Assembly (NCBI GenBank): GCA_011600865.1
Contig: GCA_011600865.1_4890.1
DNA from: Escherichia coli
GTDB lineage: Bacteria > Pseudomonadota > Gammaproteobacteria > Enterobacterales > Enterobacteriaceae
Strand: one strand, 5' to 3'
DNA: 52,276 nt
Each line of letters opens with the position of its first letter. Within the stretch, counting starts at the first letter, position 1. The translations under genes and the position numbers were made by a program. This document shows positions 19,999 through 39,601 of this stretch, in pieces. Under the pieces are notes generated by a model. That model saw nothing but the letters and a program-made list of their open reading frames with translations, was not told where the DNA came from and made no database searches.

Positions 19999-20502
19999 TT
20001 ATGGTCGTACAGGCCAGTCAATATGCGGCGCATCTGACATTACAAGCAACATCAAATCAGCACGGAATTTATGCAAAGCGATGATACGTTCTTCATCCTC
20101 TTCAGTGTCGAGTTGCTCTTCAACCCAAGCCTGTTCTTCCTGCAGGCGCTCTTCTGCAATTGCTAACTGCAGTTCCGAGTGCTTAACGAATTTGCCATTA
20201 ACGTAAGACCACTCGTAATAGCAATCCGCAAACTTATCAGCAGGCACAGAGTCAACAATATGCAAATCACAGTTAACAGGAAACAGCAACGTAGGATTGT
20301 TAGAATACGCCGCCACAGCATTGTACTTATCCACAACAATATAGTGAACCAGCTCTTTATTCTTAGCCAGCTCTTTAGCCAACTTGCGCCAGTCATTACC
20401 GTTGTTATCCTTGATGAATACAACGCCTTGCTTAATCAGCGGAAGTGTCTCCGCCGTCCTTTGTGGGTTGTATTCTGTAAAGTTGAAAAATGACAGTTGC
20501 AT
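19999..20502 (-). CDS. Tail fiber assembly protein (Tfa chaperone), paralog 2
   Basis: 167 aa; clear paralog of the adjacent 180 aa protein (FFNFTEYNPQ vs FRNFTMYHPE; NDWRKLAKEL vs RDWYNLAKEL); Tfa-like C-terminus ending DWPVRP. Confidence 0.65.
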   Translation of the reverse strand: MQLSFFNFTEYNPQRTAETLPLIKQGVVFIKDNNGNDWRKLAKELAKNKELVHYIVVDKYNAVAAYSNNPTLLFPVNCDLHIVDSVPADKFADCYYEWSYVNGKFVKHSELQLAIAEERLQEEQAWVEEQLDTEEDEERIIALHKFRADLMLLVMSDAPHIDWPVRP

Positions 20503-20505
20503 GGT

Positions 20506-21048
20506 TTACTCCGGCATAGGTGGAACAACCATAGCGGAACCAAGATTAACGTCAAGACGATTGACAGCAATCCTGTAATCACGCCATTTAGCAAACAGCT
20601 CTTTTTCTTCATCGGTAGCATTGCCACTATCAACTGTGTCGCGTAAAACACTGACCTTGGTCGAAGCGATGGACAGAGCTTGTTCTTTACGCTCACGAGC
20701 AATCTCCTTCATCATTGGTGCGTTAAGCGTAAACTCTTTACCGTCGAAAAGCCATTCGCCGACAGTCTCGAAGATATTGAAAGGCGGGTCGTATGTTACA
20801 ACCATATCACAACCCACAGGATGGAACATAGTCGGGTCGGTATGTGCAGCAATTACAACTCCGTTCTTATCTATCTGCAAGAACGTTGCGCCTTCGTATT
20901 TGATAACTAACTCTTTTGCGAGATTGTACCAGTCGCGACCTTCCTCATCCTTGAGGAAGATTGCACCAGCATTTACAATGTTCTCGTTCTCTTCTGTTAC
21001 CTCAGGATGGTACATGGTAAAATTACGGAACACCTTATGCTTAGTCAT
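20506..21048 (-). CDS. Tail fiber assembly protein (Tfa chaperone), paralog 1
   Basis: 180 aa immediately downstream of the tail fiber gene; Tfa-like C-terminal region WRDYRIAVNRLDV...PPMPE. Confidence 0.65.
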   Translation of the reverse strand: MTKHKVFRNFTMYHPEVTEENENIVNAGAIFLKDEEGRDWYNLAKELVIKYEGATFLQIDKNGVVIAAHTDPTMFHPVGCDMVVTYDPPFNIFETVGEWLFDGKEFTLNAPMMKEIARERKEQALSIASTKVSVLRDTVDSGNATDEEKELFAKWRDYRIAVNRLDVNLGSAMVVPPMPE

Positions 21049-21057
21049 AGTAAACCT

Positions 21058-22398
21058 TTACGATACGTTGCTTACGTTAATCCAAGTGCCGTTGATATAA
21101 TACTGTAACGGCGCTGACCAGTACGAGCCACCGCGCAGCTCTTTTTTATCGCCGAAGCGCCAGCCAGTCATTACATGCCCACGGTAGAACGTTGACTCGG
21201 ATACACCAGCAGCAATACGAGCGCCGAGTCGAATACCCCGAACGTTACCGGCTGAAGTATCGATAGGCTGCGGGTTGTTAGGTGAATATACTCTAACACC
21301 ATTCTCGCATAAAATAAAGCTGTTTGTGGTAGTTACTCTGCTGTTAAGGCCATCTACCTGCAAAGCTACTGTACGACGGTCGGCAATACCACCAGGGCGA
21401 CACACTGCCATGTTAATCTGGGTGGCACCACCTGCCGTAAGAATGTGCTGGATATGTGACATAGGCACAGAACCCCAGCAAGCCGCAGTGATAACGTTAC
21501 TGTTAGCCGCAACAGAAACAGAAGTCAGCAACTCCTGAACAGCAGTACCGCCTGCAATGTTACCGGAGTACTCAACAGTACCTACGCCGGCGGAGTTAGC
21601 AGCACGCAGCAAGTCGGAAGTAGTACGTGCAATATGTAACCAGCCGATAGTACCTAAGTTACCACGGATTGAGTCAGAACCATCCATAGGGATGAAGTCC
21701 TGGTTAATACCCAGCTCAGCGGCCGTAGGTTTATTGTCAGGCCCGTAAGAGTATGACCAGCCACCCCAGGTATTGTTAACCTTCTCACGCATAGCAATTA
21801 CGCGCTTACCTTTGGTTCGTGCCCACTGTGAAGCGTTATTAGCATCCCAGTTGATGTGCAGAATCTCAGTCTCAACGCCGTTAGTAGGTCCGCCAGTACC
21901 TGACGCTGGAAGCTGATAGATACCGTCATCTGTAATGCTGTTAGCATTAGTAACGACTTCAGCATTACCACCTAAGCCAAACGCTCCAACCTGGATTACG
22001 TTACCAGAGGCTTTACCTATCTGACGTGCTGCAGCAGACGCAGCGGTCAGGTCGAGTACAGGACGCCACTGCGTGGGGTTAGCCGACGGTACCATGTTAA
22101 TATTTTGCACCAGACAACGGTACAGCATATTGTCAGCATTAACTTTAACCAGTGCACCAACCGGGTAGGTCTCAGTTTCTACCCATACGTCAACACCCTG
22201 CTGTAGGATGTAGTGGATACCTTTGTCAGTACGGTTACCGATAAAGTTAAACCACTCCATCGGAGGAATACCTTCCGAGTAGCCGAGGGTTGCACCCCAG
22301 CCTCGAGCAAGGTCACCGAACGGCAGCAGTTCACCAGTACCCGCTGAGCTGGCGAAGATGTCGTTATCGGGTCTTGTTTGTACATCAGCCATATACAT
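21058..22398 (-). CDS. Tail fiber protein
   Basis: 446 aa Gly/Ala/Thr/Asn-rich protein upstream of two Tfa chaperone genes and downstream of the baseplate genes. Confidence 0.6.
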   Translation of the reverse strand: MYMADVQTRPDNDIFASSAGTGELLPFGDLARGWGATLGYSEGIPPMEWFNFIGNRTDKGIHYILQQGVDVWVETETYPVGALVKVNADNMLYRCLVQNINMVPSANPTQWRPVLDLTAASAAARQIGKASGNVIQVGAFGLGGNAEVVTNANSITDDGIYQLPASGTGGPTNGVETEILHINWDANNASQWARTKGKRVIAMREKVNNTWGGWSYSYGPDNKPTAAELGINQDFIPMDGSDSIRGNLGTIGWLHIARTTSDLLRAANSAGVGTVEYSGNIAGGTAVQELLTSVSVAANSNVITAACWGSVPMSHIQHILTAGGATQINMAVCRPGGIADRRTVALQVDGLNSRVTTTNSFILCENGVRVYSPNNPQPIDTSAGNVRGIRLGARIAAGVSESTFYRGHVMTGWRFGDKKELRGGSYWSAPLQYYINGTWINVSNVS

Positions 22399-23044: not shown

Positions 23045-24203
23045 TCACCACTGCAATAGTGATACGGTTCGCAGCGAATATTGCACGCTCAAGAGCAGTG
23101 ATACGCAGAATCGTGTCTGTTGACGGATTAGGTGTTTTACCCACAAAGAACGTCTTGATGTAGAAGTTCGGGCTTACACCGTTAGCTTCTTGAATCAGCT
23201 GGCCCAGTTCGTAAGTCGATACCTCTTCACCGATATTGTATACCTTGGACAGAATAGCATTCTTAATAAGGTCCTCGGAAACGTCGGTAAACAGTTCCTT
23301 ACGAGCTACAACGAGTGAAGCATACGCCTCAACATAAGTAGGCTGACTCCATTTCATTGTGCGCTGTGTACCTGATTTATCCGTAATCTGATACGACACA
23401 GTACCAATCTGCGTACAGCCATTAGTCTTACGACGGAAGATACAGTCAGCAATAGCAGCAGGCGAACCGCCATCCACAACAATCTGCATACTGTGAGGAG
23501 GTAAGCCAGTTAACGGGTCTTGTGTGCTTTCTTCGTTCTCGTAACCGTTACATGCGATAACATCAGTCATCTGACGAATCTCAGCAACAATACCATCGAC
23601 GCTGTTCGTGCCAGGTTTGCCGTAAGAAGCATATGCCCGGTCTATTGCCTCAGAGTCGAGTTCAGTGGACGCACCGCCAGACGACACTTGCATGTTTGTA
23701 ACTTTACGTACACCAGAAACAATAGTCTGTGGCTTAAGCTCGTCGTTTGCAAGTACGACAAAGCGTCCAGTCTTAACAGAGCTGAAGCTTGTTTCAACTA
23801 CACCGTTATCATCCAGCGCAACGGTGGAGTTAAGCTGGTACACGTTATTCGAGCTGTCAGTTACATAGTAAGGAGTACGTATAATAGTGTTACGGTCACC
23901 TTCAATCTTAACCCTGGTCAACAGCGTTGACATCTCGCCTTTACGCTGAAGCGCTACGTAGGCAAGGAACTGGTCTACGTACACACCAGACGCCTGGTTA
24001 GGGTCAAGCATAGAAAACAGAATTGCAACTTGCTCGTCCTGGTCTGCAAACATCTGCGCCAGAATACCAACCATTTGTCCGTCAGCAGACTTAGCTGACA
24101 AATCAATATCCGCGCCATACACACGACGGAAGAGCGTTTCGAATCTGCTGATCCAGTCGTCGAGCTTGACGGGAACATAGCCTGTGCTAGTTACAGAGCC
24201 CAT
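23031..24203 (-). CDS. Baseplate J-like protein
   Basis: 390 aa in the gp45-gp46-gp47-gp48-like order of Mu/P2-type baseplates; assignment mainly positional. Confidence 0.5.
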   Translation of the reverse strand: MGSVTSTGYVPVKLDDWISRFETLFRRVYGADIDLSAKSADGQMVGILAQMFADQDEQVAILFSMLDPNQASGVYVDQFLAYVALQRKGEMSTLLTRVKIEGDRNTIIRTPYYVTDSSNNVYQLNSTVALDDNGVVETSFSSVKTGRFVVLANDELKPQTIVSGVRKVTNMQVSSGGASTELDSEAIDRAYASYGKPGTNSVDGIVAEIRQMTDVIACNGYENEESTQDPLTGLPPHSMQIVVDGGSPAAIADCIFRRKTNGCTQIGTVSYQITDKSGTQRTMKWSQPTYVEAYASLVVARKELFTDVSEDLIKNAILSKVYNIGEEVSTYELGQLIQEANGVSPNFYIKTFFVGKTPNPSTDTILRITALERAIFAANRITIAVVNADG

Positions 24204-24574
24204 CAGTTTTCTCCGGTTAAATTAATACTTCTGTTAATAGAGGTTGTGTTGTGATAAATATCATTAACCTCAACCGAATAAACAGCGTGACGGGAGTCAG
24301 GGTCGAAGCTTAGGGTAAAGCTCTCGATAGAACTAACTCCATACTCCGCAAGTATTGCTGTCTTGATTGCAGCCTCCAGGTCAGCCCATCGAACAGGCTT
24401 CTCCATTAGTCCGAACCAGTCAATGCCATAGTCCAGGTCATGTACCCAGTCCATAGTATAACAGCGGAGTATCTGCACGATACGTTGTTCAATGGACTCA
24501 GACGTATCGGCGTAGTCAAGTCGGCCACGCCCAAAATTCCAGTCCCAGTTTGAATCGAGTCGTCTAGTTCGCAT
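24203..24574 (-). CDS. Baseplate protein (Mu gp46-like / GPW-like)
   Basis: 123 aa ORF start-stop coupled to the J-like gene. Confidence 0.4.
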   Translation of the reverse strand: MRTRRLDSNWDWNFGRGRLDYADTSESIEQRIVQILRCYTMDWVHDLDYGIDWFGLMEKPVRWADLEAAIKTAILAEYGVSSIESFTLSFDPDSRHAVYSVEVNDIYHNTTSINRSINLTGEN

Positions 24575-30131: not shown

Positions 30132-31271
30132 TTAGCGAGTGAAGTTAATCAGGATGTCACTGGAATGGATTGCACCCGCCAGCTTAATCGCGATTTGCAT
30201 TACAACGGCCTGACGAGCTTCACGCTCATCCAGAGGCTGATCATCTACGTCAGGGATGTAGATGTAGAAACCTGTTTCTAGTCGGTCACCATAAGACAGT
30301 GTACCAAACTCATCACCGTACCAGATACCAGGCGCAACCAAGCCGTTGTCGACAGCCTGCTGACAAGCAACAGCTGCAGCACCGGTAAGGCGCTCGTGAC
30401 CTTTGTTCGTCTGCGGCACCTTCGTGGGTGACGTAGCAATTGAGTTGAAGACGTAAGTCTGAACTGCATTGCAGAACCAGTCTAGACCGTGTACTTCATC
30501 CCAGAAGCGAGGCGGGTTGGATGTACCGAGAACAGTGCCCTCCGCAAGCATAGCAAAGGTGCTGTAGTAGGTGTACCAGTTAATACCCAGCGCTTTACAC
30601 TTGTTAGCTTCAGTAAGCGTTAAAGTGTTGTTCGGTGTAATACCAGGCTCTTGTTTGAACTTCATGGTAATCGTGGTGCGGTTACCAGAGAAGTTAACGG
30701 ACAGAGCACGAGCCATAGCAGAGATGTCTGCGTAGTATTGGTTGTTCTTATCGTACTGAAGCCACATATTGTTGTAGCCTTTACCCGCCAGAACTTTAAT
30801 CGGGTTGGAGTCGCTGTTTTCAATATGAGTTGCTTTAGTGGTAGTATAGCTGCAACGCTTTTTATCGTAAGCAGCAACAGTTGACGCCAGCAAATCGATG
30901 TCAGCGTCAGATAGCTCACCAGTAGGTGGAAGCGGACGCAGAACATACCAGTCAGGGTACACATCGTTGAATGCACTAATAGCCGCATCCAGAGTAGAGG
31001 TGCTGTCCCATGAGGCGATAACTACTGAGCGAGGACGCGGAGATTGTGCAAAGAAAATCTTCAACGCGCCAAGCACAACTGAACCTGTACCCCAATAAGA
31101 CTCGGCGTCAGCGTAGCTGCCGATTTCAACATAGTGTCCGTTGTCGCTGTCAGGAAAAGCAGTGCCAGGGTCCTGAGTTAAAAGAGCCAGCTTACCGAAG
31201 CCACCTTTGCTGATACCAGTTGGAGTGTTGTTCAGTTGAACGTTTACAATCTGGTTTACATTCAACGGCAT
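30132..31271 (-). CDS. Tail sheath protein (short sheath type)
   Basis: 379 aa immediately upstream of the tube gene, with an intergenic gap before the Ig-like genes. Confidence 0.5.
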   Translation of the reverse strand: MPLNVNQIVNVQLNNTPTGISKGGFGKLALLTQDPGTAFPDSDNGHYVEIGSYADAESYWGTGSVVLGALKIFFAQSPRPRSVVIASWDSTSTLDAAISAFNDVYPDWYVLRPLPPTGELSDADIDLLASTVAAYDKKRCSYTTTKATHIENSDSNPIKVLAGKGYNNMWLQYDKNNQYYADISAMARALSVNFSGNRTTITMKFKQEPGITPNNTLTLTEANKCKALGINWYTYYSTFAMLAEGTVLGTSNPPRFWDEVHGLDWFCNAVQTYVFNSIATSPTKVPQTNKGHERLTGAAAVACQQAVDNGLVAPGIWYGDEFGTLSYGDRLETGFYIYIPDVDDQPLDEREARQAVVMQIAIKLAGAIHSSDILINFTR

Positions 31272-31357
31272 TTTTGTTTACCTCTTGGGTGGACTTTCCG
31301 GCCATTATACTCAGTAAGTTTAACCAAGTAAATGGCCGAGGCAAAGTTAATTAATTT

Positions 31358-33490
31358 TTATGCTGCATCGACGGACTGATAAGAGCTGTCCGACGCTGTA
31401 GCGTTTCTCACAGTTACTGTGGCACCAATACGACATCCACCGTCACCAACGCCAGTAATAACACCAGTATTACTTACAGTAGCGACAGTATCGTCTGTAG
31501 TTGTATACTGAATGTTATAGCCCGGGTCTGTCTTAGCGTATTCAGGACTAACAGTTACAACGAGCTGCTGAGTGTTACCAACAGTAAGTGCAGGCAGCGA
31601 ATCAGTAGTAACAGAAAGCTCAGACACGTAAGGAGATGTTGTATCAGAAGCAGCAACACCATTCATTACAACGTTAGCAGTAATAGCTGCTGAACCTTCA
31701 GAGTTAGCAGTCATCAAGCCATTTGCATCTATGCTAATGATAGAGTCATCTGACGAGCTATAAGTAACAGTAACGCTCTTAGAGTCCGACGGATAAATCT
31801 CAACACCAAGTTGTTTGGTGTTACCCACAAGCCATTCATCGTACTGCAGGTATACCTGTACCCTCTCAGAAATTTGTGCCCAAGCAGCTGAGCTAATGTC
31901 AGCGCCATTACTAGTTGCGTAAATCCAGATATTACATCCGCCCTCAGCAACACCAGTTACAACGCCAGACGAATCAACAGTCGCAATAGCTGGGTCAGCA
32001 GATTCATAACGAATATCAGTTAGATCCGCATCAGACGGGCTAACAGTATAAGTGAACTGCTGAGTACCACCAATTGGAATACCACCAAGACCATCTGGTG
32101 TAATAACAGCCACCTCCGTGCAAGTCGCTACAAATGAAGCCTCAAGCCCACCGTCGTCTGTTGTAACTGTAATAGTCGAAGTTCCAGGAGATTGACCGTA
32201 TATAACTCCGTTAGTGTCAACAGTAACAGCGCTTGGGTTTGAGCTGTTATAACTGACTTCTTTATTGGTTGCGTTGTCAGGTGTTATAACAATTTTAGTT
32301 TGCACCTGATGACCAGCACTCACTTTAGTCGGAGAATCAGGAGCCCATGCAACGCCTGTAACTGCGATGCTAGGGTCTGTAACGTTAACCTCAATGCTAT
32401 CGGTAAAGCCCCCGTCATTAGTCATAACAGTAACGTCAATTAAGCCTGCAGCGTTAGCAGTTACCAAACCAGCTTCAGTCACAGACGCAACTTCTGACAC
32501 AGGAGCACTCCATACAACAGATGGGTCAGTAGCATTTTCAGGAGTCACGGTGGCATGCAGCTGAAGAGTGTCTCCAACTTCCATGGAGGCTGTAGCGCCT
32601 TCATCAATACTTACACCGGTAACATTTACAGCAGGCACCCTGACTATAATATCAAGAGTGTCAGTCTTATCGCCGTCATTCGTCTTAACAGTAACAGTGG
32701 CATTACCAGCTACAATACCAGTAACATTTCCGTCAGTATCCACAGTTGCTACATCAGGCTCACTGCTTTCGTACGTCACTGTTTTGTCAGTGGCGTCTTC
32801 TGGCGATATACGAATACTCGTCTCAGCTGTGCTTCCGATATTAACGTTAAGAGGTGACTGAGTAAGAAACTCAACTCCTGTAACGTGCACAACAGGAGGA
32901 ATAACAGTTACTGTACAGCTATCGAATATAGAGCTGTCAACACCGTACTGTACGTTTACAGTTGTTTCGCCATCTCCAATTGCAGTGACGAGCCCGCTGT
33001 CGCTAACGACAGCAACAGACTCATCATCTGAAATCCAGTAGAAATCAGTATTATCTGCATTAACAGGTAAATAGGTGTATGTCAGACGTTGAGTCTCACC
33101 CTCTTCAAGCGTCACGCTTGTGGGAGACACTGTAACAGATTCAACAAGGATAGGTGCTTGAGCAACATTGAACTTTGCTCGTACAGTATAACCGCCATCA
33201 ACAGACGTACCAGTCACGTATGCAACACCTTCCGCCAGCGGCTTTGCAAATCCGAGCTCATCAACGGTGATAACGTCTGAGTCGCTAGATTCCCATACCA
33301 TACCACGCTCAGTAGCGTTGGTTGGAATGTAGAGCACAGCTAGCTGAACAGGGTCATCATCCGCAACGATTGAGTACTCGTAGTTGTAAAGCATTATGCC
33401 TTCCAGCGGAACATTGGGGGTAAAACCTTTACCCCCGTTGCTCTTACTGAACTGGACGTCGACAACCTCATCAAGTGGAAGCGACATCAA
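31358..33490 (-). CDS. Virion protein with tandem bacterial Ig-like (Big_2-type) domains
   Basis: 710 aa with at least six roughly 80-90 aa repeats following the pattern VTGV...L.VG.T.QL...V.P..AT...V.W.S.....ATV...G.VT....G...I. Confidence 0.75.
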   Translation of the reverse strand: MMSLPLDEVVDVQFSKSNGGKGFTPNVPLEGIMLYNYEYSIVADDDPVQLAVLYIPTNATERGMVWESSDSDVITVDELGFAKPLAEGVAYVTGTSVDGGYTVRAKFNVAQAPILVESVTVSPTSVTLEEGETQRLTYTYLPVNADNTDFYWISDDESVAVVSDSGLVTAIGDGETTVNVQYGVDSSIFDSCTVTVIPPVVHVTGVEFLTQSPLNVNIGSTAETSIRISPEDATDKTVTYESSEPDVATVDTDGNVTGIVAGNATVTVKTNDGDKTDTLDIIVRVPAVNVTGVSIDEGATASMEVGDTLQLHATVTPENATDPSVVWSAPVSEVASVTEAGLVTANAAGLIDVTVMTNDGGFTDSIEVNVTDPSIAVTGVAWAPDSPTKVSAGHQVQTKIVITPDNATNKEVSYNSSNPSAVTVDTNGVIYGQSPGTSTITVTTDDGGLEASFVATCTEVAVITPDGLGGIPIGGTQQFTYTVSPSDADLTDIRYESADPAIATVDSSGVVTGVAEGGCNIWIYATSNGADISSAAWAQISERVQVYLQYDEWLVGNTKQLGVEIYPSDSKSVTVTYSSSDDSIISIDANGLMTANSEGSAAITANVVMNGVAASDTTSPYVSELSVTTDSLPALTVGNTQQLVVTVSPEYAKTDPGYNIQYTTTDDTVATVSNTGVITGVGDGGCRIGATVTVRNATASDSSYQSVDAA

Positions 33491-33498
33491 TCAGCTCC

Positions 33499-34137
33499 TT
33501 ACTCGTCAGTAACAGTTACTGACGCGGTGTCAGTGAAGCTGCCATCAGCTGTTTTGACAGTGATGGTGACGTCGCCAGCTGCGATACCAGTCACCAGACC
33601 AGTTTCGCTAACTGTAGCTTTATCCTGGTCGCTTGATTCGTAGGTAACAGCTTTGTTAGTAGCGTCAGCAGGCAGCACAGTTGCAGTCAGTTGTACAGTA
33701 GATTCTACTACAACGCTGGTCGACTTAGGCTCTAACGTAACACCAGTAACAGCTACAGGCGGAACAGTTACTGTAATTGCTACGGTATCGGCTTTAGTAG
33801 GGTCAAGCTTGGATTTAGCAGTAATAGTTGCTGAACCTTCATTGATACCTTGAACACGACCTGCACCATCAACAGTGGCATTAGCAGGTGTATCACTTTC
33901 CCACAACACGGTGACGTCATCTGCGTCTGCCGGGGCCACTACTGCTGTCAGAGTAGTAAACTCACCAACAACAATTGTCTTAGTTTTAGGGGTGACAGTT
34001 ACACTGGTAACTGGAGTTGGAATGAACTTTCCGTCCTCGTCAAGCTTGGTAGGCTTGGATAATGGGAACTGAGTAACCGACTCTTGACGCAGGTCTGCGT
34101 CTTCAATAGGACGGTTGGCTGTAGTACGTTTTGCCAT
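33499..34137 (-). CDS. Virion protein with Ig-like (Big_2-type) domains
   Basis: 212 aa with two Ig-like repeats similar to those in the 710 aa protein. Confidence 0.7.
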   Translation of the reverse strand: MAKRTTANRPIEDADLRQESVTQFPLSKPTKLDEDGKFIPTPVTSVTVTPKTKTIVVGEFTTLTAVVAPADADDVTVLWESDTPANATVDGAGRVQGINEGSATITAKSKLDPTKADTVAITVTVPPVAVTGVTLEPKSTSVVVESTVQLTATVLPADATNKAVTYESSDQDKATVSETGLVTGIAAGDVTITVKTADGSFTDTASVTVTDE

Positions 34138-34204
34138 CTGGAGAATCCTCTTATTGGGTGCGCCAGCTTATTATAGGCTGGCGCCTCGGTTAAGTAAATA
34201 GTGG

Positions 34205-37162
34205 CTACGGGCCTAAATCATAAATATCTGCTTTAGTCCCTTTGTTTTTGTACAGTAAGTATAACCCCAGCCCTCGTAATATTTCACCAGAGTAAAAGCC
34301 AAAGTACATGGCATTGCTTTCAGGTCCGCTACCAGTACTCAGGCGCAGAGCAGGTGACCAACCACCATCCATTACATGACCAGGAATACCTGTTATGTCG
34401 TAATGGTCTTCTAGCTCGTTGACAAGCATATCCATCAGCTTATCAAGGCCTGAAACTGTCGACCCACAAAGGGCTGACATAGATGCGCCTGCCAGCCATA
34501 AGCCACACATGTGACCAGTGAAGTCTGTCGGGTCTGGCAGAGCAACACCTTCTTGCGGGAAGTTAGTAGGCGATACACCACCTGACCTTTCCATAAAGTC
34601 CAGCAACCATCTCGACCAGTTATCCACGTAAGCGATAAGCTTACTAGGAACTGGCTTACCACGGTTTACTAACTCATACCAACCACGTGCTGCGGCGAAG
34701 TAAGCACGAGGCTGGTAACCTGACCATGCACTACCATTACCCCAGTGATACATAGTGAACGTGTCAGGTACACCGTACTTAAAGTTATCCCAACGGTTCC
34801 AGATATAAGCAGACGCACCAGGACCGAGCTGACCAAGCTTCTTAAAGTACCATTGCTGAGAATCGTATAAGAAGTCAACCATGTTGTTAAGCCTGGTCGT
34901 ACCAGCTGCAGTATCATCATGCGTAAATATAAACGGATACTGATAGCCAGGGTAAGGTAGACCATGCCAGCCGTCAAACTGCTGAGAGTCAGTGTTATAA
35001 ATGTTGGAGAACGGAATAACACCAGGCGTATATGCAAGGTTATCATTCTCATAGTCCAGCACAGTACAGTCACCTAGCTTAGCTGTGTACGGGTTATCAG
35101 CCGATAAAGTAAGACGGTACTTAATCGTATAACCAATCGGCCAGTTATAGCGAGGCGGAACGTCATTTACACAGTACCAGCTGATACTTGTCGGCGTATT
35201 AACACCATCGGGCAGTACAAGCGAGAACTGCTTAATCTCGCCGAATCGTGGGCTTGTAGGCGGTGTACCTGGGTTTTCCTGGTATGACGCCAGCCTGAAC
35301 TCGCTGGTGCGAATCTGCTGAGTTACCCATCCTGGTGCGGCAGGTAAGTCACGTACCCAACTCCAGCCCTGTGCGTCAGTTACTTTGATGAGCAACGGAC
35401 CTGTAGAAGTATACGTTAGCGAGTTTAAAGGTGCCTGGGAAGATTCCAGTAACCAAAAGCCTATAATAGCACCTGACGAACTATCCGGTATTGTCATACG
35501 AACAGTGTTGCCACGTCTGCCGTCAAGTATGTCAGTACGGTAAGACACCGCAATAGTGGCATTGCCATAATCAGTGGATGAACGAATATCAGCTAAGATA
35601 TACTCAGAACCGTCCGGCTTAGTACCTGCAACAAAGTCGCTTAACGGAATATCGTAGTTAGCAGGTGAAGCGCCAAGTGCAGGTAGCTGCGCGACAAAAC
35701 GATAGATGTTTTGCTCAACATCAACCTTTTCACGGTTCATGTACATTTCCACCTTGACACTGATGTTCTGACCAGCATCATCTTTGCCACCTACCTCTGT
35801 ACGTATCTTAGCTGTTGGCTTACACTTAAACCATACAGCCTGCTGCTCCAGAGATGATTGAGCTTTTTCGTTCTGACGTAGAACTATATAACCATTTTCA
35901 TCACGTGAATATATAGCTTGTGCCAGTTCAGGATAAGACCAATCATAAGAGATGCCATCAGTAAACGGAGACGACGCGTGAGTGTCTTGTCGGAAGAACT
36001 GGTCTTGTCTATCAATGTCAATATACTCCTCCAGTGTAAACAGGACAGCTTGCCAAGCGTTGTAATACTTTTGCTCGTTAGTAATTCGCCACAGCATATA
36101 GCAGCAGTCACAGAACCACAGCTCAGCATCAGCAGCATTACCGCGCTGAAGCTCGCCGTGCAGTGGAACGTTCACAGGTCTGTTGTGCCATACTTCATTT
36201 CGCTTGAGCAAATAACCACCGTGTTCAACAGGAAGCTTAACAGCATAGTTAAGCAGGTACACACCATTGACAGTATGGTCACGAAGCTGAATCTCACCTT
36301 TACGTGAACTGGGTAAACCAGTTTCCAGAATCTCACCACCCCATAGCTCGTCGTTCTTACCTGGCAGTACACCAATTCTGTTACCAGTCCATGCAACGAT
36401 ATATTCTATTAGCTGCAACGGAGGCTCAGGAGAAGACCAGTCAACTGTGTACGACGGTTTACCAAGATAGCGTGGCCAATCAATCCAGGCTAACTGATTC
36501 CATGGGTCAGCTGGCATGGTAGTGATGCGATAATTGTTGTAAATATCATCCCAGTTAACGTTATCTTTAATAACACGGACCCCACCGTTAATAGCAGGCC
36601 ATGCCATGTGTCCCCTGTGGGCCCAAGTAGCAACATCCAGGTACTCGCCCCAGAAAGGAGAACCATGAGGGATTTGTGCTTTGCCGTTAACAAATTTAAC
36701 TGGCACATTTTTATATCCACCCTGTGTTGGTGAATCAGGGTTGATCGGGAAGCTGGCTAGCACAGGCTCTTTGCCATTACAAAGCCAGTTAGCGATCCAG
36801 CGACGAGGAGTATCAGGGATTGGGTCACCTTCGTAATAGTATTCGACGTAAGCATTGAAGTACTCAATTGCTTTGTCCAGATACCGCTGTTCCTTAGTAG
36901 CAAGGTAGGCGTGAATTTCGCCGAGTATCAGCAGCGACTGACTTTCAGACGGAGCATCACCGTTAGGTTGGTACTCCATCATAGTGTGCGCAATAAAATG
37001 GCGGTTGTTCGACACTACTCCTTCTGGGTTGAAGATATAGTGCTGACGCGTAGCGTCGTCAGTTCTACCAGTATTGCGCTCAAGAAAGTGGTGGTGACCT
37101 TCGATAAGGCTTTCGACATTAGCTCGATGGTCTGATCCGTCTTTAAGCAACATCGTGTGCAT
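34205..37162 (-). CDS. Large virion-associated protein, possibly a carbohydrate-active enzyme (depolymerase-like)
   Basis: 985 aa and very rich in Trp/Tyr/Gly; the C-terminal third (WYFKKLG...YIWNRWDNFKYG...GHMCGLWLAGASMSALCG...YFGFYSGE) resembles alpha/alpha-barrel glycoside hydrolase or lyase folds. The ORF is secure; the function is speculative. Confidence 0.45.
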   Translation of the reverse strand: MHTMLLKDGSDHRANVESLIEGHHHFLERNTGRTDDATRQHYIFNPEGVVSNNRHFIAHTMMEYQPNGDAPSESQSLLILGEIHAYLATKEQRYLDKAIEYFNAYVEYYYEGDPIPDTPRRWIANWLCNGKEPVLASFPINPDSPTQGGYKNVPVKFVNGKAQIPHGSPFWGEYLDVATWAHRGHMAWPAINGGVRVIKDNVNWDDIYNNYRITTMPADPWNQLAWIDWPRYLGKPSYTVDWSSPEPPLQLIEYIVAWTGNRIGVLPGKNDELWGGEILETGLPSSRKGEIQLRDHTVNGVYLLNYAVKLPVEHGGYLLKRNEVWHNRPVNVPLHGELQRGNAADAELWFCDCCYMLWRITNEQKYYNAWQAVLFTLEEYIDIDRQDQFFRQDTHASSPFTDGISYDWSYPELAQAIYSRDENGYIVLRQNEKAQSSLEQQAVWFKCKPTAKIRTEVGGKDDAGQNISVKVEMYMNREKVDVEQNIYRFVAQLPALGASPANYDIPLSDFVAGTKPDGSEYILADIRSSTDYGNATIAVSYRTDILDGRRGNTVRMTIPDSSSGAIIGFWLLESSQAPLNSLTYTSTGPLLIKVTDAQGWSWVRDLPAAPGWVTQQIRTSEFRLASYQENPGTPPTSPRFGEIKQFSLVLPDGVNTPTSISWYCVNDVPPRYNWPIGYTIKYRLTLSADNPYTAKLGDCTVLDYENDNLAYTPGVIPFSNIYNTDSQQFDGWHGLPYPGYQYPFIFTHDDTAAGTTRLNNMVDFLYDSQQWYFKKLGQLGPGASAYIWNRWDNFKYGVPDTFTMYHWGNGSAWSGYQPRAYFAAARGWYELVNRGKPVPSKLIAYVDNWSRWLLDFMERSGGVSPTNFPQEGVALPDPTDFTGHMCGLWLAGASMSALCGSTVSGLDKLMDMLVNELEDHYDITGIPGHVMDGGWSPALRLSTGSGPESNAMYFGFYSGEILRGLGLYLLYKNKGTKADIYDLGP

Positions 37163-37785
37163 TATTCAATCCATCCACCGTTAAAGAAACCCATCCAAGT
37201 TGCTCCTGAGTCAAAGGTAAGCAACGTAACAACATCTGTGTAACCCACAAGGAATGACAGAACGGGCTTTCTGTTGTTTGCCCATTTTATTCTGGGGTCC
37301 CAAGTGGTCACCTTGTTAGAACCAGTACCTTGCTTAATAGCAATAGTAATCTGACGCGCAACAGTAGACGGGTCAGACACATCACCGATATTAATTACGG
37401 TGTTTGGCTGGTTAAGAGTAAGACTGACAATTGTTTTAGATGCAGCTGGTATAGTCACTGTAGCTGCACTTGCAACGTTGCCGTACTCATAGATTGCTGA
37501 CGTCGAAGATACTGTAGCCTGTTCAGCTGCAGTTTCTGCAGCATTCTTGGCTTCTATAGCAGCATCACGAGCAGCACGAGCCTGTATAGCAGCTTCGTTA
37601 GCACTTTCAAAGTTTGGTATAGCTTCATTGATTGCAGCGTTAATGCCTTCGAGTGTGCGTATGACACCACCTTCCGGGTTAGGGATGTTTGGGTCGTCTG
37701 ACATACCGAAGTCATGAATGAGCTGGACAGCAGTTGTTAGCTTATCCAGCTGCGCTTGCAGTTCCGGGTCTACTTCAGTTGCCAT
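37162..37785 (-). CDS. Hypothetical virion protein
   Basis: 207 aa, Ala-rich helical N-terminal half; coupled to flanking structural genes. Confidence 0.5.
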   Translation of the reverse strand: MATEVDPELQAQLDKLTTAVQLIHDFGMSDDPNIPNPEGGVIRTLEGINAAINEAIPNFESANEAAIQARAARDAAIEAKNAAETAAEQATVSSTSAIYEYGNVASAATVTIPAASKTIVSLTLNQPNTVINIGDVSDPSTVARQITIAIKQGTGSNKVTTWDPRIKWANNRKPVLSFLVGYTDVVTLLTFDSGATWMGFFNGGWIE

Positions 37786-38312
37786 TACGGTTCCTCTACT
37801 GTACCAGTCGCTTCGTTACCGTTATCATCCATACAAGTGATGTCAACCTTATAGATGTACGGTTGCTCAATCTTAACTTTATGCACATAGCTAATGTCAA
37901 CAGTCAGCATTGACTTCTGAGCATAGCCTGCACCGATAGCACCACCGACATTATCAATCTTCGATATTTTGGTTATTGCATAATGTCGTAAACGGTTAAA
38001 CTGCTTAGCTGGTGAACTACCAAGTGCTATGTGTAGCTTACGCATTAGCTCAGCAGCATTCTTACCAACGGCTGTAATGCGTACAGCCGTCATCATTGGC
38101 TTGCTGACGTACTCAAAGCCATCAGAGCCTTGTCTGGTTCTAGGAGGTCCGAAGTCATATGCGTCGCCAGGGCGCAGATAAACATACGGTGTACCATCAA
38201 CTGTACCAGACTCTTCACCAATAATACATGAACCGTCAGGTAATGTTAAAAGCTTCTGAACGAGCTCCCTGAGGTCCTTTATGGAGAATTGCTGTAACGT
38301 AGTAGTGGCCAT
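37785..38312 (-). CDS. Hypothetical structural protein
   Basis: Start placed at the internal Met (MATTTLQQF) to reduce overlap with the upstream gene; the ORF-track start is 38342. Confidence 0.45.
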   Translation of the reverse strand: MATTTLQQFSIKDLRELVQKLLTLPDGSCIIGEESGTVDGTPYVYLRPGDAYDFGPPRTRQGSDGFEYVSKPMMTAVRITAVGKNAAELMRKLHIALGSSPAKQFNRLRHYAITKISKIDNVGGAIGAGYAQKSMLTVDISYVHKVKIEQPYIYKVDITCMDDNGNEATGTVEEP

Positions 38313-38613
38313 GACGACTCCATGGGTCGATACGGAATACACGGTATGGCTGGTCTTCGTATATAACGAAGTCTCCGAGCTTCAGCTCTTGTCCACAGTA
38401 TATCGCAATACGTGGGAACTCATGCTCGCCATCGTCTTTAGTCAACAGGTTAGGCTGGTTGGTAGCTGCACCAGGTTGAATGTTACACAGATACTTTGCA
38501 GCTGTATATTCGTCTTCGAAGTCACCGTTTGGTAAGCGCGAATCATTTCGGAGAAGAACATCTGTTAATGCCACAAAGGACTTATCCTTCATTAGCGAAG
38601 TTATCTTGAGCAT
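38236..38613 (-). CDS. Hypothetical structural protein
   Basis: 125 aa ORF in the head completion/connector block. Confidence 0.45.
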   Translation of the reverse strand: MLKITSLMKDKSFVALTDVLLRNDSRLPNGDFEDEYTAAKYLCNIQPGAATNQPNLLTKDDGEHEFPRIAIYCGQELKLGDFVIYEDQPYRVFRIDPWSRHGHYYVTAILHKGPQGARSEAFNIT

Positions 38614-39101
38614 TATAGCCTCCAGTTTCTGCCAACTTTGTACCCTATCGAATCATACAACTGCATAGATTCTCTAAGTGTACCTGGCCCGCTTTTGCGT
38701 TCTTCTGTCAGCTCGGTGTTAGGGGGCGGCACGTCACTGTCCATTCTGTCGTGAACAGCATCAACAAGCATACGACCTATTCTGTCATTAAGCTCATGCG
38801 CAGTCATGCTTCCTCTGAGAACCGCAGGTACATTATCGCGGAAAACTTTGTTTATTGCCTGTCGGCCTTTACCCCTGCCACCAACAGCACTACGAAGAAA
38901 GCTTCGTTCTGGCAGACCGTTGAGACCGTATTCATGCACCATTGCTAGCTCTGCGTTTGTTATACGGTCCCTTGGATTTATACGTCTGTTGTGTTCTGGG
39001 TGAACACCTACTGATACGCCTTGACCTTCAAACGACTTAAAGGCACGGTAGGTGAACTCGAACTTTTGTTTGTCGCGCCGTTCAAGGCGTATGCGAATCA
39101 T
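38613..39101 (-). CDS. Head-tail joining / neck protein (tentative)
   Basis: Start refined to the ATG at 39101, which overlaps the upstream stop in a TAATG arrangement; 162 aa. Confidence 0.45.
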   Translation of the reverse strand: MIRIRLERRDKQKFEFTYRAFKSFEGQGVSVGVHPEHNRRINPRDRITNAELAMVHEYGLNGLPERSFLRSAVGGRGKGRQAINKVFRDNVPAVLRGSMTAHELNDRIGRMLVDAVHDRMDSDVPPPNTELTEERKSGPGTLRESMQLYDSIGYKVGRNWRL

Positions 39102-39601
39102 TATACTCTCCGCGTTCTCAGTGATGCACCCACAAGGTGCTTGAGCATGACCTTGGCGCCTGAAGTCCAAAGGTCAGTTGCGCCGGTAACGCCTGACTTG
39201 GAGTCGAAGTATTCAATCTCCAGGTTACCAACCTTCTTACGGCGCAAAGCCTGGTCACCGCGTACACCTTCCTCGCCGGCGTAGCTCAATACGCTAGCCA
39301 GCATATAAAGCTGTGCCAGCTTAACTTCTCGCGGAATTACAGATTCCGCTATATCAACATTACACGCACCGAGGCCTGTACGCGGCCAGGCCATGTTCTG
39401 TGTTTTGCTGACCTTACGACCTAACCAGTTAAATTGGTTATCCAGTCGAATAGCTACTTTAGCAGCCTGGTAGTATGGGTCAGTTCCTGGCTGAATGAGA
39501 ATACCTTCGTTAGTGATAAACTCATCTACTTCTGTAGCGCTAACATACGAGTTAGCCCCCGGAACGATTGAACCGTCTTCCACAACAAGTGTGTATGCCA
39601 T
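39101..39601 (-). CDS. Head-tail adaptor protein (tentative)
   Basis: 166 aa ORF immediately downstream of the major capsid gene. Confidence 0.45.
   Translation of the reverse strand: MAYTLVVEDGSIVPGANSYVSATEVDEFITNEGILIQPGTDPYYQAAKVAIRLDNQFNWLGRKVSKTQNMAWPRTGLGACNVDIAESVIPREVKLAQLYMLASVLSYAGEEGVRGDQALRRKKVGNLEIEYFDSKSGVTGATDLWTSGAKVMLKHLVGASLRTRRV

Follow-up and report, generated by a model that had tools for sequence, protein, structure and literature searches.

The closest described counterparts of the locus analysed here are found in the phages phi92, rV5 and S144. Phi92 gp141 has been listed as a 'glycosidase' (PMC5380687), and homologs were earlier labelled 'glycosidase' or 'possible hydrolase' from HHpred. 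Both rV5 gp42 and gp43 are virion proteins by mass spectrometry (PMC3606486). In S144, gp16, gp17 and gp18 were detected in the virion by ESI-MS/MS, gp17 with 25 peptides and gp18, a homolog of the 212-aa protein described below, with 80% coverage, the highest; gp19, the homolog of the Big_2 array protein, is absent from the list of detected virion proteins (PMC7432712). We found no family member in the literature with a demonstrated activity, substrate or place in the virion; a 2026 cryo-EM study of phi92 did not locate gp141, and neither gp141 nor gp142 is mentioned there. A paper on a 'gp38' receptor-binding protein was considered as relevant and set aside, since it concerns a 123-aa gpW-like baseplate protein from another region.

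The window, that is, the whole stretch of 52,276 nucleotides that was analysed, is a Rosemountvirus (Salmonella/E. coli), and its DNA is 93% identical to that of phages yarpen, BP63 and SPLA2. The three open reading frames of the first-pass annotation, all on the minus strand, agree with ours in coordinates and size, and they do lie between the neck/head-completion genes and the sheath, with Ad1, Neck1 and the terminator upstream and a DUF3383 sheath downstream. A further gene of 207 codons at 37162-37785, which belongs to the module of the 985-aa gene, had been overlooked. The features of the region are as follows:

39101-39601: Ad1, upstream of the module
38613-39170: Neck1, upstream of the module
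37785-38342: tail terminator, directly upstream of the 207-aa gene
37162..37785, minus strand: 207-aa adaptor mini-fibre (PHROG 27998 / VOG5264), counterpart of phi92 gp140 and rV5 gp43
34205..37162, minus strand: 985-aa phi92 gp141-type tail protein (PHROG 2871 / VOG1347), with a split (alpha/alpha)6 GH8-like barrel and beta-sandwich insertions
34170..34198, minus strand: promoter-like site TTTACT-17-TATAAT in the 67-nt gap ahead of the 212-aa gene, a consensus match only
33499..34137, minus strand: 212-aa protein, a non-Ig N-terminal part of about 44 aa followed by two Big_2 domains
31358..33490, minus strand: 709/710-aa Big_2 array protein with eight Big_2 domains
31304-31332: second TTTACT-17-TATAAT site, upstream of the sheath gene
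30132..31271, minus strand: tail sheath, DUF3383 / E217 gp31-type, downstream of the Big_2 array
21058-22398: Mu-type tail fibre

The 207-aa gene shares one base with the stop of the terminator gene and one with the start of the 985-aa gene. Translation of the array from TTG gives 710 aa, and from the ATG at 33487, the start used in the annotation of phage yarpen, 709 aa. Phage S144 has an annotated promoter at the position equivalent to the site at 34170..34198. Extended to 37785, the region is in our judgement probably an accessory glycan-handling tail appendage composed of the adaptor, the GH8-like protein and the two Big_2 proteins. The module is of a known appendage type, which most likely handles host surface sugars and sits on the tail, not on the capsid.

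The 985-aa protein matches the full-length profile of PHROG 2871 (E = 0, 1427.7 bits, residues 3-981), and its homologs in yarpen and in the phi92-like phage alia (gp021) are both annotated as VOG1347. A tblastn search of INPHARED revealed homologs in 533 phage records, among them phi92-like, rV5-like, SPN3US, 121Q and phiEa21-4 phages and Vibrio podophages; identity over the full length is 84% to S144, 44% to alia and 33% to rV5. Pfam returned nothing for the full protein, no lyase-type or CAZy family HMM was matched, and PDB sequences, searched with the protein as well as a 51-sequence profile, gave only a 23-residue GH76 match (E 0.034). The AF2 model (pLDDT 88.9, pTM 0.85) contains an (alpha/alpha)6 barrel, and its Foldseek matches are GH48 cellulases, CBM11 and CBM4. 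The chain is divided as follows:

36827..37162, minus strand: barrel segment 1, aa 1-112, with helices 13-29, 72-89 and 92-109 (secondary structure of the model)
36143..36826, minus strand: insertion A, aa 113-340, a beta-rich domain flanked by barrel helices 3/4 (DSSP of the model)
35993..36142, minus strand: barrel segment 2, aa 341-390, with helices 344-361 and 364-381
34943..35992, minus strand: insertion B, aa 391-740, beta-sandwich domains similar to carbohydrate-binding modules
34208..34942, minus strand: barrel segment 3, aa 741-985, with helices 752-776, 816-833, 840-859, 883-899, 906-919 and 955-974

The first-pass annotation had seen the signature of an alpha/alpha-barrel glycoside hydrolase or lyase in the C-terminal third. 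The barrel itself is borne out by the AF2 model and by Foldseek, but it is not confined to that third, being assembled from residues ~1-112, 341-390 and 741-985. The aromatic-rich composition and the Trp/Tyr/Gly-rich C-terminal third were noted correctly: W+Y+F amount to 13.1% of the protein as compared to 7.6% in 18 other virion/packaging proteins, and the last 245 residues contain 15.5% aromatics and 12.2% Gly. Insertion A is partly missing from the phi92-, rV5- and podophage-type homologs in our alignment. Insertion B resembles CBM11 (6r31, target-normalised TM-score 0.55) and CBM4-2 in Foldseek and matches PHROG 23426 at residues 520-697; residues ~517-700 recur in other tail proteins, where they form a module by themselves (stand-alone matches to 517-686). 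A beta-helix tailspike depolymerase was also considered and rejected, as the model consists of an alpha/alpha barrel and beta-sandwiches and no beta-helix enzyme was found among the top structural matches.

In GH8 enzymes a Glu where the second helix begins is the catalytic acid, and in GH8a the catalytic base is an Asp where helix 8 begins. In the 985-aa family, none of E73, Q75, D345 and E347 varies among 51 homologs, nor in a set of 10 sequences that reaches the 33%-identical rV5 protein. Segment 1 holds the invariants D69, E73 and Q75 at the start of helix 72-89 (consensus 'TTEGQS', 'APSESQS' in the window protein), segment 2 the invariant motif N342-A-[AS]-D345-[AG]-E347-x-W349-F at the N-terminus of helix 344-361, and segment 3, among others, W788, R790, D792, Y816, R819, H884 and E960; nearly all remaining invariant residues gather at the N-termini of alternate helices. 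The E. coli enzyme BcsZ has counterparts in matching order, 'TTSEGQSYGMF' and 'SASDGDVWMAW', and E73 in its TEGQS-like motif resembles BcsZ E55. In our reading the core is an (alpha/alpha)6 barrel of GH8/GH48 type with inserted CBM-like jelly-rolls; the role of general acid would fall to Glu73, and the sugar at subsite -1 would be held by Asp345 and Glu347.

The same comparison bears on a different explanation, namely that the 985-aa protein serves, without catalysis, as a scaffold or branched-fibre arm, whose barrel is a relic used as a platform or lectin for variable distal modules. The HMM and signature tests of GH8 membership failed. Five constructs reduced to the barrel had no Pfam match to the GH8 HMM (PF01270) with E values up to 10 allowed. 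When the family profile was aligned to E. coli BcsZ by hhalign, whether the insertions were kept or removed, the probability was 0.1-0.2, which is not significant, and the register was shifted. The GH8 signature, which we take to be A-[ST]-D-[AG]-D-x(2)-[IM]-A-x-[SA]-[LIVM]-[LIVMG]-x-A-x(3)-[FW] (PROSITE), was matched by the BcsZ positive control and by none of the 51 family members, which read N-A-[AS]-D-[AG]-E-x-W-F at that place. The presumed GH8a base position reads Y816-Q817-P-R819, apparently a Gln, in a motif alignment to BcsZ that is not significant by hhalign; D792 and E960 are invariant candidates for an alternative base. A scaffold would also suit the 45-50% identity across phages of very different hosts, which is unusually high for a receptor-binding protein, and the variety of modules that are fused to the C-terminus of the large protein or encoded directly behind it: Big_2 arrays, in phi92-like phages a TIM-barrel protein of the 'non-contractile tail sheath' type (NCTSP), and a Gp77 fibre-tail adaptor. 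In addition, phi92 fibre I has been described as an L-shaped arm with the endosialidase at its tip, the arm protein being without assignment. However, E73, D345 and E347, together with a Trp/Tyr/Arg belt at the inner-helix N-termini, stay invariant down to 33% identity, which is hard to explain in a pure scaffold, and the pair of Vibrio podophage G1, alone at the tail-fibre position, must itself meet the host. We consider the scaffold unlikely and favour a protein for which binding to a conserved beta-linked surface polysaccharide is most likely and cleavage of it probable.

The large protein and the adaptor are paired across phages. In eight phage contexts, the gene just ahead of the large one is small and encodes a VOG5264-type C-terminal domain; this domain is 36-41% identical in two pairwise tests, and its columns Q, G, N, K, W, W, P, L, D, W, G are invariant in all eight. 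In the window, this conserved beta domain of ~110 aa follows an N-terminal part of ~95 aa, which is helical/coiled-coil, lineage-specific and has no counterpart elsewhere. Among the homologs the N-terminus is swapped by virion type, for example for a T7-fibre N-domain or a tailspike N-domain; some P2-like prophages have gpI (Tail_P2_I) joined straight onto the large protein. Both the swaps and the gpI fusion argue for a tail or baseplate appendage and against a capsid appendage. The adaptor is portable, its N-terminus predicted to set the docking and its C-terminus going with the enzyme-like protein. The 207-aa protein is predicted to be a short adaptor fibre, probably trimeric, fixed to the virion by its lineage-specific N-terminus and paired with the large protein by its C-terminal beta domain. 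Phage phiTE was rejected as a carrier of the cassette: its genome is without it, and only the C-terminal domain of the fibre phiTE_241 is weakly adaptor-like.

The genomic contexts of the pair are consistent with a tail location. It lies inside the baseplate module in phi92- and rV5-like phages, after Baseplate_J and gpI in a P2/HP1-like prophage, after a J-type tail tip in a siphophage, and at the T7 gp17 position in Vibrio podophage G1, where it is the sole gene pair at the tail-fibre site; in another prophage the large protein is fused to Tail_P2_I. Every one of these contexts is a distal-tail receptor-binding position, which speaks against the capsid or neck location first proposed for the enzyme-like protein. 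In that earlier model the whole set would form whisker-like adhesion and depolymerase structures at the neck/collar or capsid. It would account for the order terminator, adaptor, large protein, Ig, Ig, sheath, which is kept in diverged Rosemount-like phages, for the adaptor coiled coil unique to this lineage, and for the coverage of S144 gp18, which is as expected of a multi-copy decoration protein (PMC7432712); the sheath-type arm of the Big_2 array could dock on the terminal sheath ring. Apart from the distal-tail contexts, this model is opposed by phi92, in which the handshake of the last sheath ring is already completed by a beta-hairpin of the terminator, and by our literature search, which met no description of a collar or whiskers for Rosemountvirus, S144 included. 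We hold it to be decidedly improbable for the set as a whole; neck or sheath attachment is possible only for the Big_2 array protein, via its sheath-like N-terminal arm. The tail position that we infer for the Rosemountvirus cassette is drawn entirely from relatives, the cassette here being encoded beside neck genes.

Both downstream proteins consist of tandem Ig-like domains, as the first-pass annotation had stated. Pfam Big_2 (PF02368, gathering cut-off 22.8 bits) occurs twice in the 212-aa protein (E 5.7e-35, 119.6 bits) and eight times in the 710-aa protein (E 3.2e-92, 303 bits). The N-terminus of the 212-aa protein is more conserved than its Ig domains, and the protein is the most diverged virion protein relative to SPLA2 and SPLA11 (85.8% identity). 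The first 25 and last 10 residues of the Big_2 array are identical in Rosemountvirus and Loughboroughvirus, and among relatives whole domains have been lost in frame (yarpen, SPLA2, SPLA11 with 622 aa and S144 with 624 aa were aligned); a DNA-level tandem-repeat search of the Ig genes found nothing. The array opens with a sheath-like stretch:

33446..33487, minus strand: sheath-like arm, first 14 codons of the Big_2 array, MSLPLDEVVDVQFS against sheath MPLNVNQIVNVQLN, gapless

In an ungapped 14-mer ranking of all six-frame ORF starts in four genomes, the array 14-mer was the top non-self match to the sheath N-terminus; the N-terminus of the array is too short for BLASTP against the sheath to register. 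That these 14 residues copy the sheath arm in four genomes suggests an anchoring of the array in the sheath. The arm strand predicted for the handshake sheet of the sheath is SLPLDEVVDVQF.

The two Big_2 proteins could also be independent of the large protein, as Hoc-like decoration of the capsid or sheath whose adjacency is mere gene order. They have their own promoter-like site, with hexamers identical to those of the site before the sheath gene, and the array has conserved termini around Ig domains that vary and are lost whole. The large-protein homologs of phi92-like, rV5-like phages and podophages lack Big_2 partners, and because the downstream genes differ in other phages, the Big_2 proteins and the large protein may not be partners. 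PHROG 215 falls in the head category under the label 'structural protein with Ig domain'. However, at least five homolog clusters (P0041, P0057, P0083, P0085 and P0096; the contig examined, that of P0085, is a siphophage) have Big_2 arrays joined covalently to the large protein, siphophage homologs of 1687-1694 aa and 37% identity carry them at the C-terminus, and the four-gene order is preserved in relatives with an adaptor only ~50% identical. Independent decoration is a possibility that we take seriously but lean against. Within the appendage, the Big_2 proteins would be weakly binding adhesion/decoration proteins, for whose transcription a separate promoter-like site is present; a sheath-type N-terminal strand probably anchors the larger of the two.

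A candidate substrate comes from a transposon screen, in which the cellulose synthesis genes yhjL/N/Q/R/S/U (bcs) were susceptibility genes for Rosemountvirus SPLA2 (PMC10949491). The large protein of SPLA2 is 95.8% identical to that of the window. SPLA2 (cellulose-dependent) and SPLA11 (LPS-dependent) share 97% identity in the large protein, 97.7% in the fibre and 93.4% in the 212-aa protein, and their Big_2 arrays are one whole domain apart; this comparison of virion proteins gave no attributable cause for the receptor difference. A GH8-like glycanase may be directed at an exopolysaccharide that is conserved across Gammaproteobacteria, for which phosphoethanolamine-cellulose is a concrete candidate. 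Glycan handling would ease access of the phage to the receptor of the Mu-type tail fibre. Taken together, the adaptor and large protein might be a portable virion-borne GH8-like glycanase accompanied by a Big_2 array fixed by a 14-residue mimic of the sheath arm, which would slot into the sheath 'handshake' beta-sheet at the terminal ring and yield six Ig-like whiskers; as a joint proposal this is speculative and, taken as a whole, rather unlikely.

The wide occurrence of the family includes therapy-relevant phages of phi92, rV5 and SPN3US type. The invariant acid triad Glu73, Asp345 and Glu347 offers direct targets for mutagenesis, and the swappable adaptor rule a route to re-targeting. If the cellulose link is true, the virion would carry an enzyme against a biofilm matrix polymer; if the sheath-arm mimic is real, it would be a simple means of hanging accessory proteins on a contractile tail.

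As compared to known systems, the cassette resembles phi92 gp141+gp140 (Justusliebigvirus), rV5 gp42+gp43 and S144 gp17+gp16 in pairing a small upstream adaptor with a large protein. In phi92 and rV5 the pair lies in the baseplate module, with a TIM-barrel protein or a long fibre encoded next, whereas here it lies between tail terminator and sheath, two Big_2 proteins come after it, and the N-terminus of the adaptor is of another, coiled-coil kind. The large protein has two motifs in common with GH8 enzymes (BcsZ, CelA; clan GH-M with GH48), and their order is that of BcsZ: T-E-G-Q-S with its invariant Glu, where the second helix begins, and A-x-D-x-[DE], where the fourth begins. It differs in that its barrel is split by two large beta-domain insertions, that it is a virion protein while GH8 enzymes are secreted or periplasmic, and that it appears from the motif alignment to have Gln at the GH8a base position. 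The T7-fibre or TSP N-terminal domains of adaptor homologs recall branched tailspike assemblies with adaptor domains (CBA120 TSP4-N with T4 gp10-like XD domains; K1-5/SP6 adaptors); the likeness to CBA120 TSP4-N / T4 gp10-like domains is structural and modest, the interaction is a predicted one, and the cargo here is an (alpha/alpha)6 protein instead of a trimeric beta-helix tailspike. Like T4 Hoc, T5 pb10 and the Big_2 C-termini of siphophage tube proteins, the two Big_2 proteins combine tandem Ig-like domains with short non-Ig anchors, and their domain number differs between close relatives. We know of no description of a sheath-arm copy as anchor in those proteins, whereas the anchor of the larger Big_2 protein here appears to copy the N-terminal arm of the sheath.

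The window is essentially a Rosemountvirus genome, and its DNA at 31358-37785 is 93-94% identical to that of the Salmonella phages emhyr, yarpen, BP63, UPF_BP2, and SPLA2, as well as several Escherichia phages. A record labelled "Listeria phage" (PP583539) shares 93% identity with this Salmonella/E. coli phage, and its host label looks wrong, as do those of several "Campylobacter phage" records of 87-143 kb with rV5-type genes. The late genes of this stretch all lie on the minus strand, and their order confirms the reading frames and positions in the first-pass annotation, which had missed only the 207-aa adaptor gene among those between the terminator and the sheath:

upstream, minus strand: portal, scaffold, Gp13-like capsid protein, Ad1, Neck1, a 125-aa ORF, and the tail terminator (37785-38342)
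37162-37785, minus strand: 207-aa adaptor
34205-37162, minus strand: 985-aa large protein
33499-34137, minus strand: 212-aa Big_2 (Ig-like) protein
31358-33490, minus strand: 709/710-aa Big_2 array protein
30132-31271, minus strand: DUF3383-type sheath, followed by tube, chaperone, and tape measure, all minus strand

Within 37785-38613 (minus strand), the ORF-finder GTG start of the terminator at 38342 gives an overlap of about 100 nt with the 125-aa ORF (38236-38613); since the annotated terminators of relatives are shorter (S144, 158 aa; yarpen and SPLA2, 175 aa), the true start probably lies downstream of 38342. A 123-aa gpW-like baseplate protein (24203-24574, minus strand) shares 99-100% identity with its counterparts in SPLA2 and SPLA11 and looks like a conserved baseplate wedge component; a 2026 paper proposed this protein, "gp38" of Rosemountvirus SD286, as a receptor-binding protein via adsorption inhibition. 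Two paralogous tail-fibre assembly chaperones (19999-20502 and 20506-21048, minus strand; mutual identity about 38% in SPLA2) come after a Mu gpS-like fibre gene (21058-22398), and paired chaperones were noted for S144 as well.

The composition of the 985-aa protein bears out its description as aromatic-rich with a Trp/Tyr/Gly-rich C-terminal part: W+Y+F amounts to 13.1% versus 7.6% in other virion proteins, and the last 245 residues contain 15.5% aromatics and 12.2% Gly. A Pfam search gave no match and a PDB sequence search no homolog, while PHROG 2871 ("tail protein") was matched with 1427.7 bits. Homologs were found by tblastn in 533 phage records, including Rosemount- and Loughboroughviruses, phi92-like Justusliebigvirus, rV5-like Vequintavirus, SPN3US, 121Q, phiEa21-4, 7-11, and podophages of Vibrio, Aeromonas, Serratia, and Klebsiella; an exhaustive profile search of 1.84 billion proteins yielded 373 clusters at 50% identity. 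The S144 database record equates ORF17 with phi92 gp141, and phi92 gp141 and gp142 both carry the label "glycosidase" in a review that cites Schwarzer 2012. According to the S144 paper, HHpred hints at hydrolase activity and MS detects gp16, gp17, and gp18 in virions; rV5 gp42 and gp43 are virion proteins too, and a 2026 phi92 cryo-EM study leaves gp141 unplaced. The 985-aa protein is a further member of a known, widespread, biochemically uncharacterised family.

The adaptor gene overlaps each neighbour by one base. The last ~110 residues of its product are conserved in the small gene directly upstream of the large gene in all contexts examined (36-41% identity in two pairwise tests), whereas the N-terminus differs in each. 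The pair occurs in Rosemountvirus and S144; in a P2/HP1-like prophage of Pseudomonas, between Baseplate_J and gpI on one side and the tail fibre on the other; in a lambda-like siphophage, where it follows the J-type tip protein; in phi92-like alia and rV5, within the baseplate module; in SPN3US; in a Vibrio T7-like podophage, at the gp17 fibre position; and in an SU10-like podophage. The podophage adaptor begins with a T7 tail-fibre N-domain and that of rV5 with a tailspike N-domain, and other prophages encode a direct fusion of Tail_P2_I with the large protein. Judged by these contexts, adaptor and large protein form a portable distal-tail cassette of the "adaptor plus cargo" kind, which does not support the capsid or neck location proposed earlier for the enzyme-like protein; that location is probably wrong. 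The Rosemountvirus adaptor N-terminus is helical and lineage-specific and gives no direct clue to the docking site. The SU10-like podophage (L016 10001-13680), where the pair directly follows the head-to-tail adaptor gene and precedes a Gp10_C protein, is another context with the cassette near neck genes, in a short-tailed phage.

The Ig-like repeat nature of the next two proteins was confirmed, with two Big_2 domains in the 212-aa protein and eight in the array protein. The only sizeable intergenic gaps of the stretch are occupied by promoter-like sites with identical hexamers (TTTACT-17-TATAAT), and S144 has promoters annotated at both corresponding places; overall, such sites are no more numerous than shuffling predicts:

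34170-34198, minus strand: promoter-like site in the gap before the 212-aa gene
31304-31332, minus strand: promoter-like site before the sheath gene

The two Big_2 proteins are the most variable virion proteins. Identity between the 212-aa protein and its counterparts in SPLA2 and SPLA11 is 85.8%, compared with 92.8-100% for the other virion proteins, array protein excepted. The array protein shows clean in-frame loss of whole Ig domains between close relatives (709 aa in the window, SPLA2, and yarpen, 622 aa in SPLA11, 624 aa in S144; loci compared: window 31358-33490, L013 1888-3756, L007 7208-9082), and no DNA-level tandem repeats were detectable in its gene. Unlike the rest, the termini of both proteins are strictly conserved. 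Siphophage homologs of 1687-1694 aa carry Big_2 arrays fused to the large protein C-terminus, and these fusions are the only evidence for joint working of the Big_2 and large proteins. In phi92-like phages, in contrast, the downstream partner is not Big_2 but a Calx-beta/NCTSP TIM-barrel protein, such as alia gp022 (L006 11871-14030; Calx-beta, NCTSP_N, and TIM barrel), encoded after the gp141 homolog; the Pfam families of this module take their definition from the Ralstonia podophage GP4 "non-contractile tail sheath". Protein P0119, in which this module is fused to a gp141-type protein, points to a single gp141-gp142 complex in phi92.

Residues 1-14 of the array protein and residues 1-14 of the sheath form an ungapped alignment in four genomes:

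window: array protein MSLPLDEVVDVQFS (33446-33487, minus strand); sheath MPLNVNQIVNVQLN (31230-31271, minus strand)
S144: array protein MSLPLNEVVDVQFS; sheath MPLNVNQIVNVQLN
L014, diverged metagenomic relative: array protein MALPLKDIVNVQLG; sheath MTLSVNSVVNVQLN
L015, diverged metagenomic relative: array protein MALLISEVVNAQLG; sheath MPLNVNEVVNTQLN

When all six-frame ORF starts of a genome (225-1005) were ranked by their match to the sheath N-terminus, the array N-terminus came first after the sheath itself in 4/4 genomes, with a BLOSUM62 score of 23-32 versus 9-17 for the next candidate. The sheath N-arm in contractile tails contributes one strand to the "handshake" sheet between rings (phi92 paper), so the array protein, given this likeness, may be anchored in the sheath at a terminal ring. 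Against such anchoring, the phi92 terminator hairpin already fills the handshake site (phi92 paper), and S144 gp19 is absent from the MS-detected protein list (S144 paper). Sheath anchoring would partly rescue the "neck-displayed" idea for the array protein alone, not for the enzyme-like protein, and its confirmation would raise the interest of the feature.

In the predicted structure of the 985-aa protein, long barrel helices at residues 13-109, 344-381, and 752-974 indicate a barrel interrupted by a beta domain (~113-340) and beta-sandwich domains (~391-740); Foldseek matches include GH48 cellulases and the jelly-roll modules CBM11 and CBM4. The carbohydrate-active-type fold expected for the C-terminal third is thus present, but that third is only the last part of a barrel whose helices start at residue 13. 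Cellulose is a concrete candidate substrate, because the predicted GH8-like fold is combined with jelly-roll domains resembling beta-glucan-binding CBMs. In a transposon screen, susceptibility genes were those of cellulose synthesis for Rosemountvirus SPLA2 and of LPS for SPLA11 (PMC10949491). The large proteins of these phages are 97% identical, so the screen does not tie the phenotype to the large-protein gene. Confirmed cellulose targeting would likewise make the feature more interesting.

Four residues are invariant both in 51 homologs and in a set reaching the 33%-identical rV5 protein: E73 and Q75 (consensus G-T-T-E-G-Q-S), at the N-terminal end of helix 72-89, and D345 and E347 (N-A-[AS]-D-[AG]-E-x-W-F), at that of helix 344-361. 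Most remaining invariant residues (W788, R790, D792, Y816, R819, H884, and E960) are found where alternate helices begin, the arrangement expected around an (alpha/alpha)6 cleft. Catalysis by this putative enzyme is likely. Several results speak against GH8 membership: the GH8 HMM gave no match, barrel-only constructs included, hhalign against E. coli BcsZ was not significant, 0/51 family members match the GH8 signature, and Gln817 appears to occupy the GH8a base position. BcsZ, a GH8 enzyme, has the motifs TTSEGQSYGMF, in which Glu55 is the acid, and SASDGDVWMAW, in the same order and placement as the E73/Q75 and D345/E347 motifs. Compared with this known system, the 985-aa protein is classed here as GH8-like in fold and acid motifs and not as a GH8 member.
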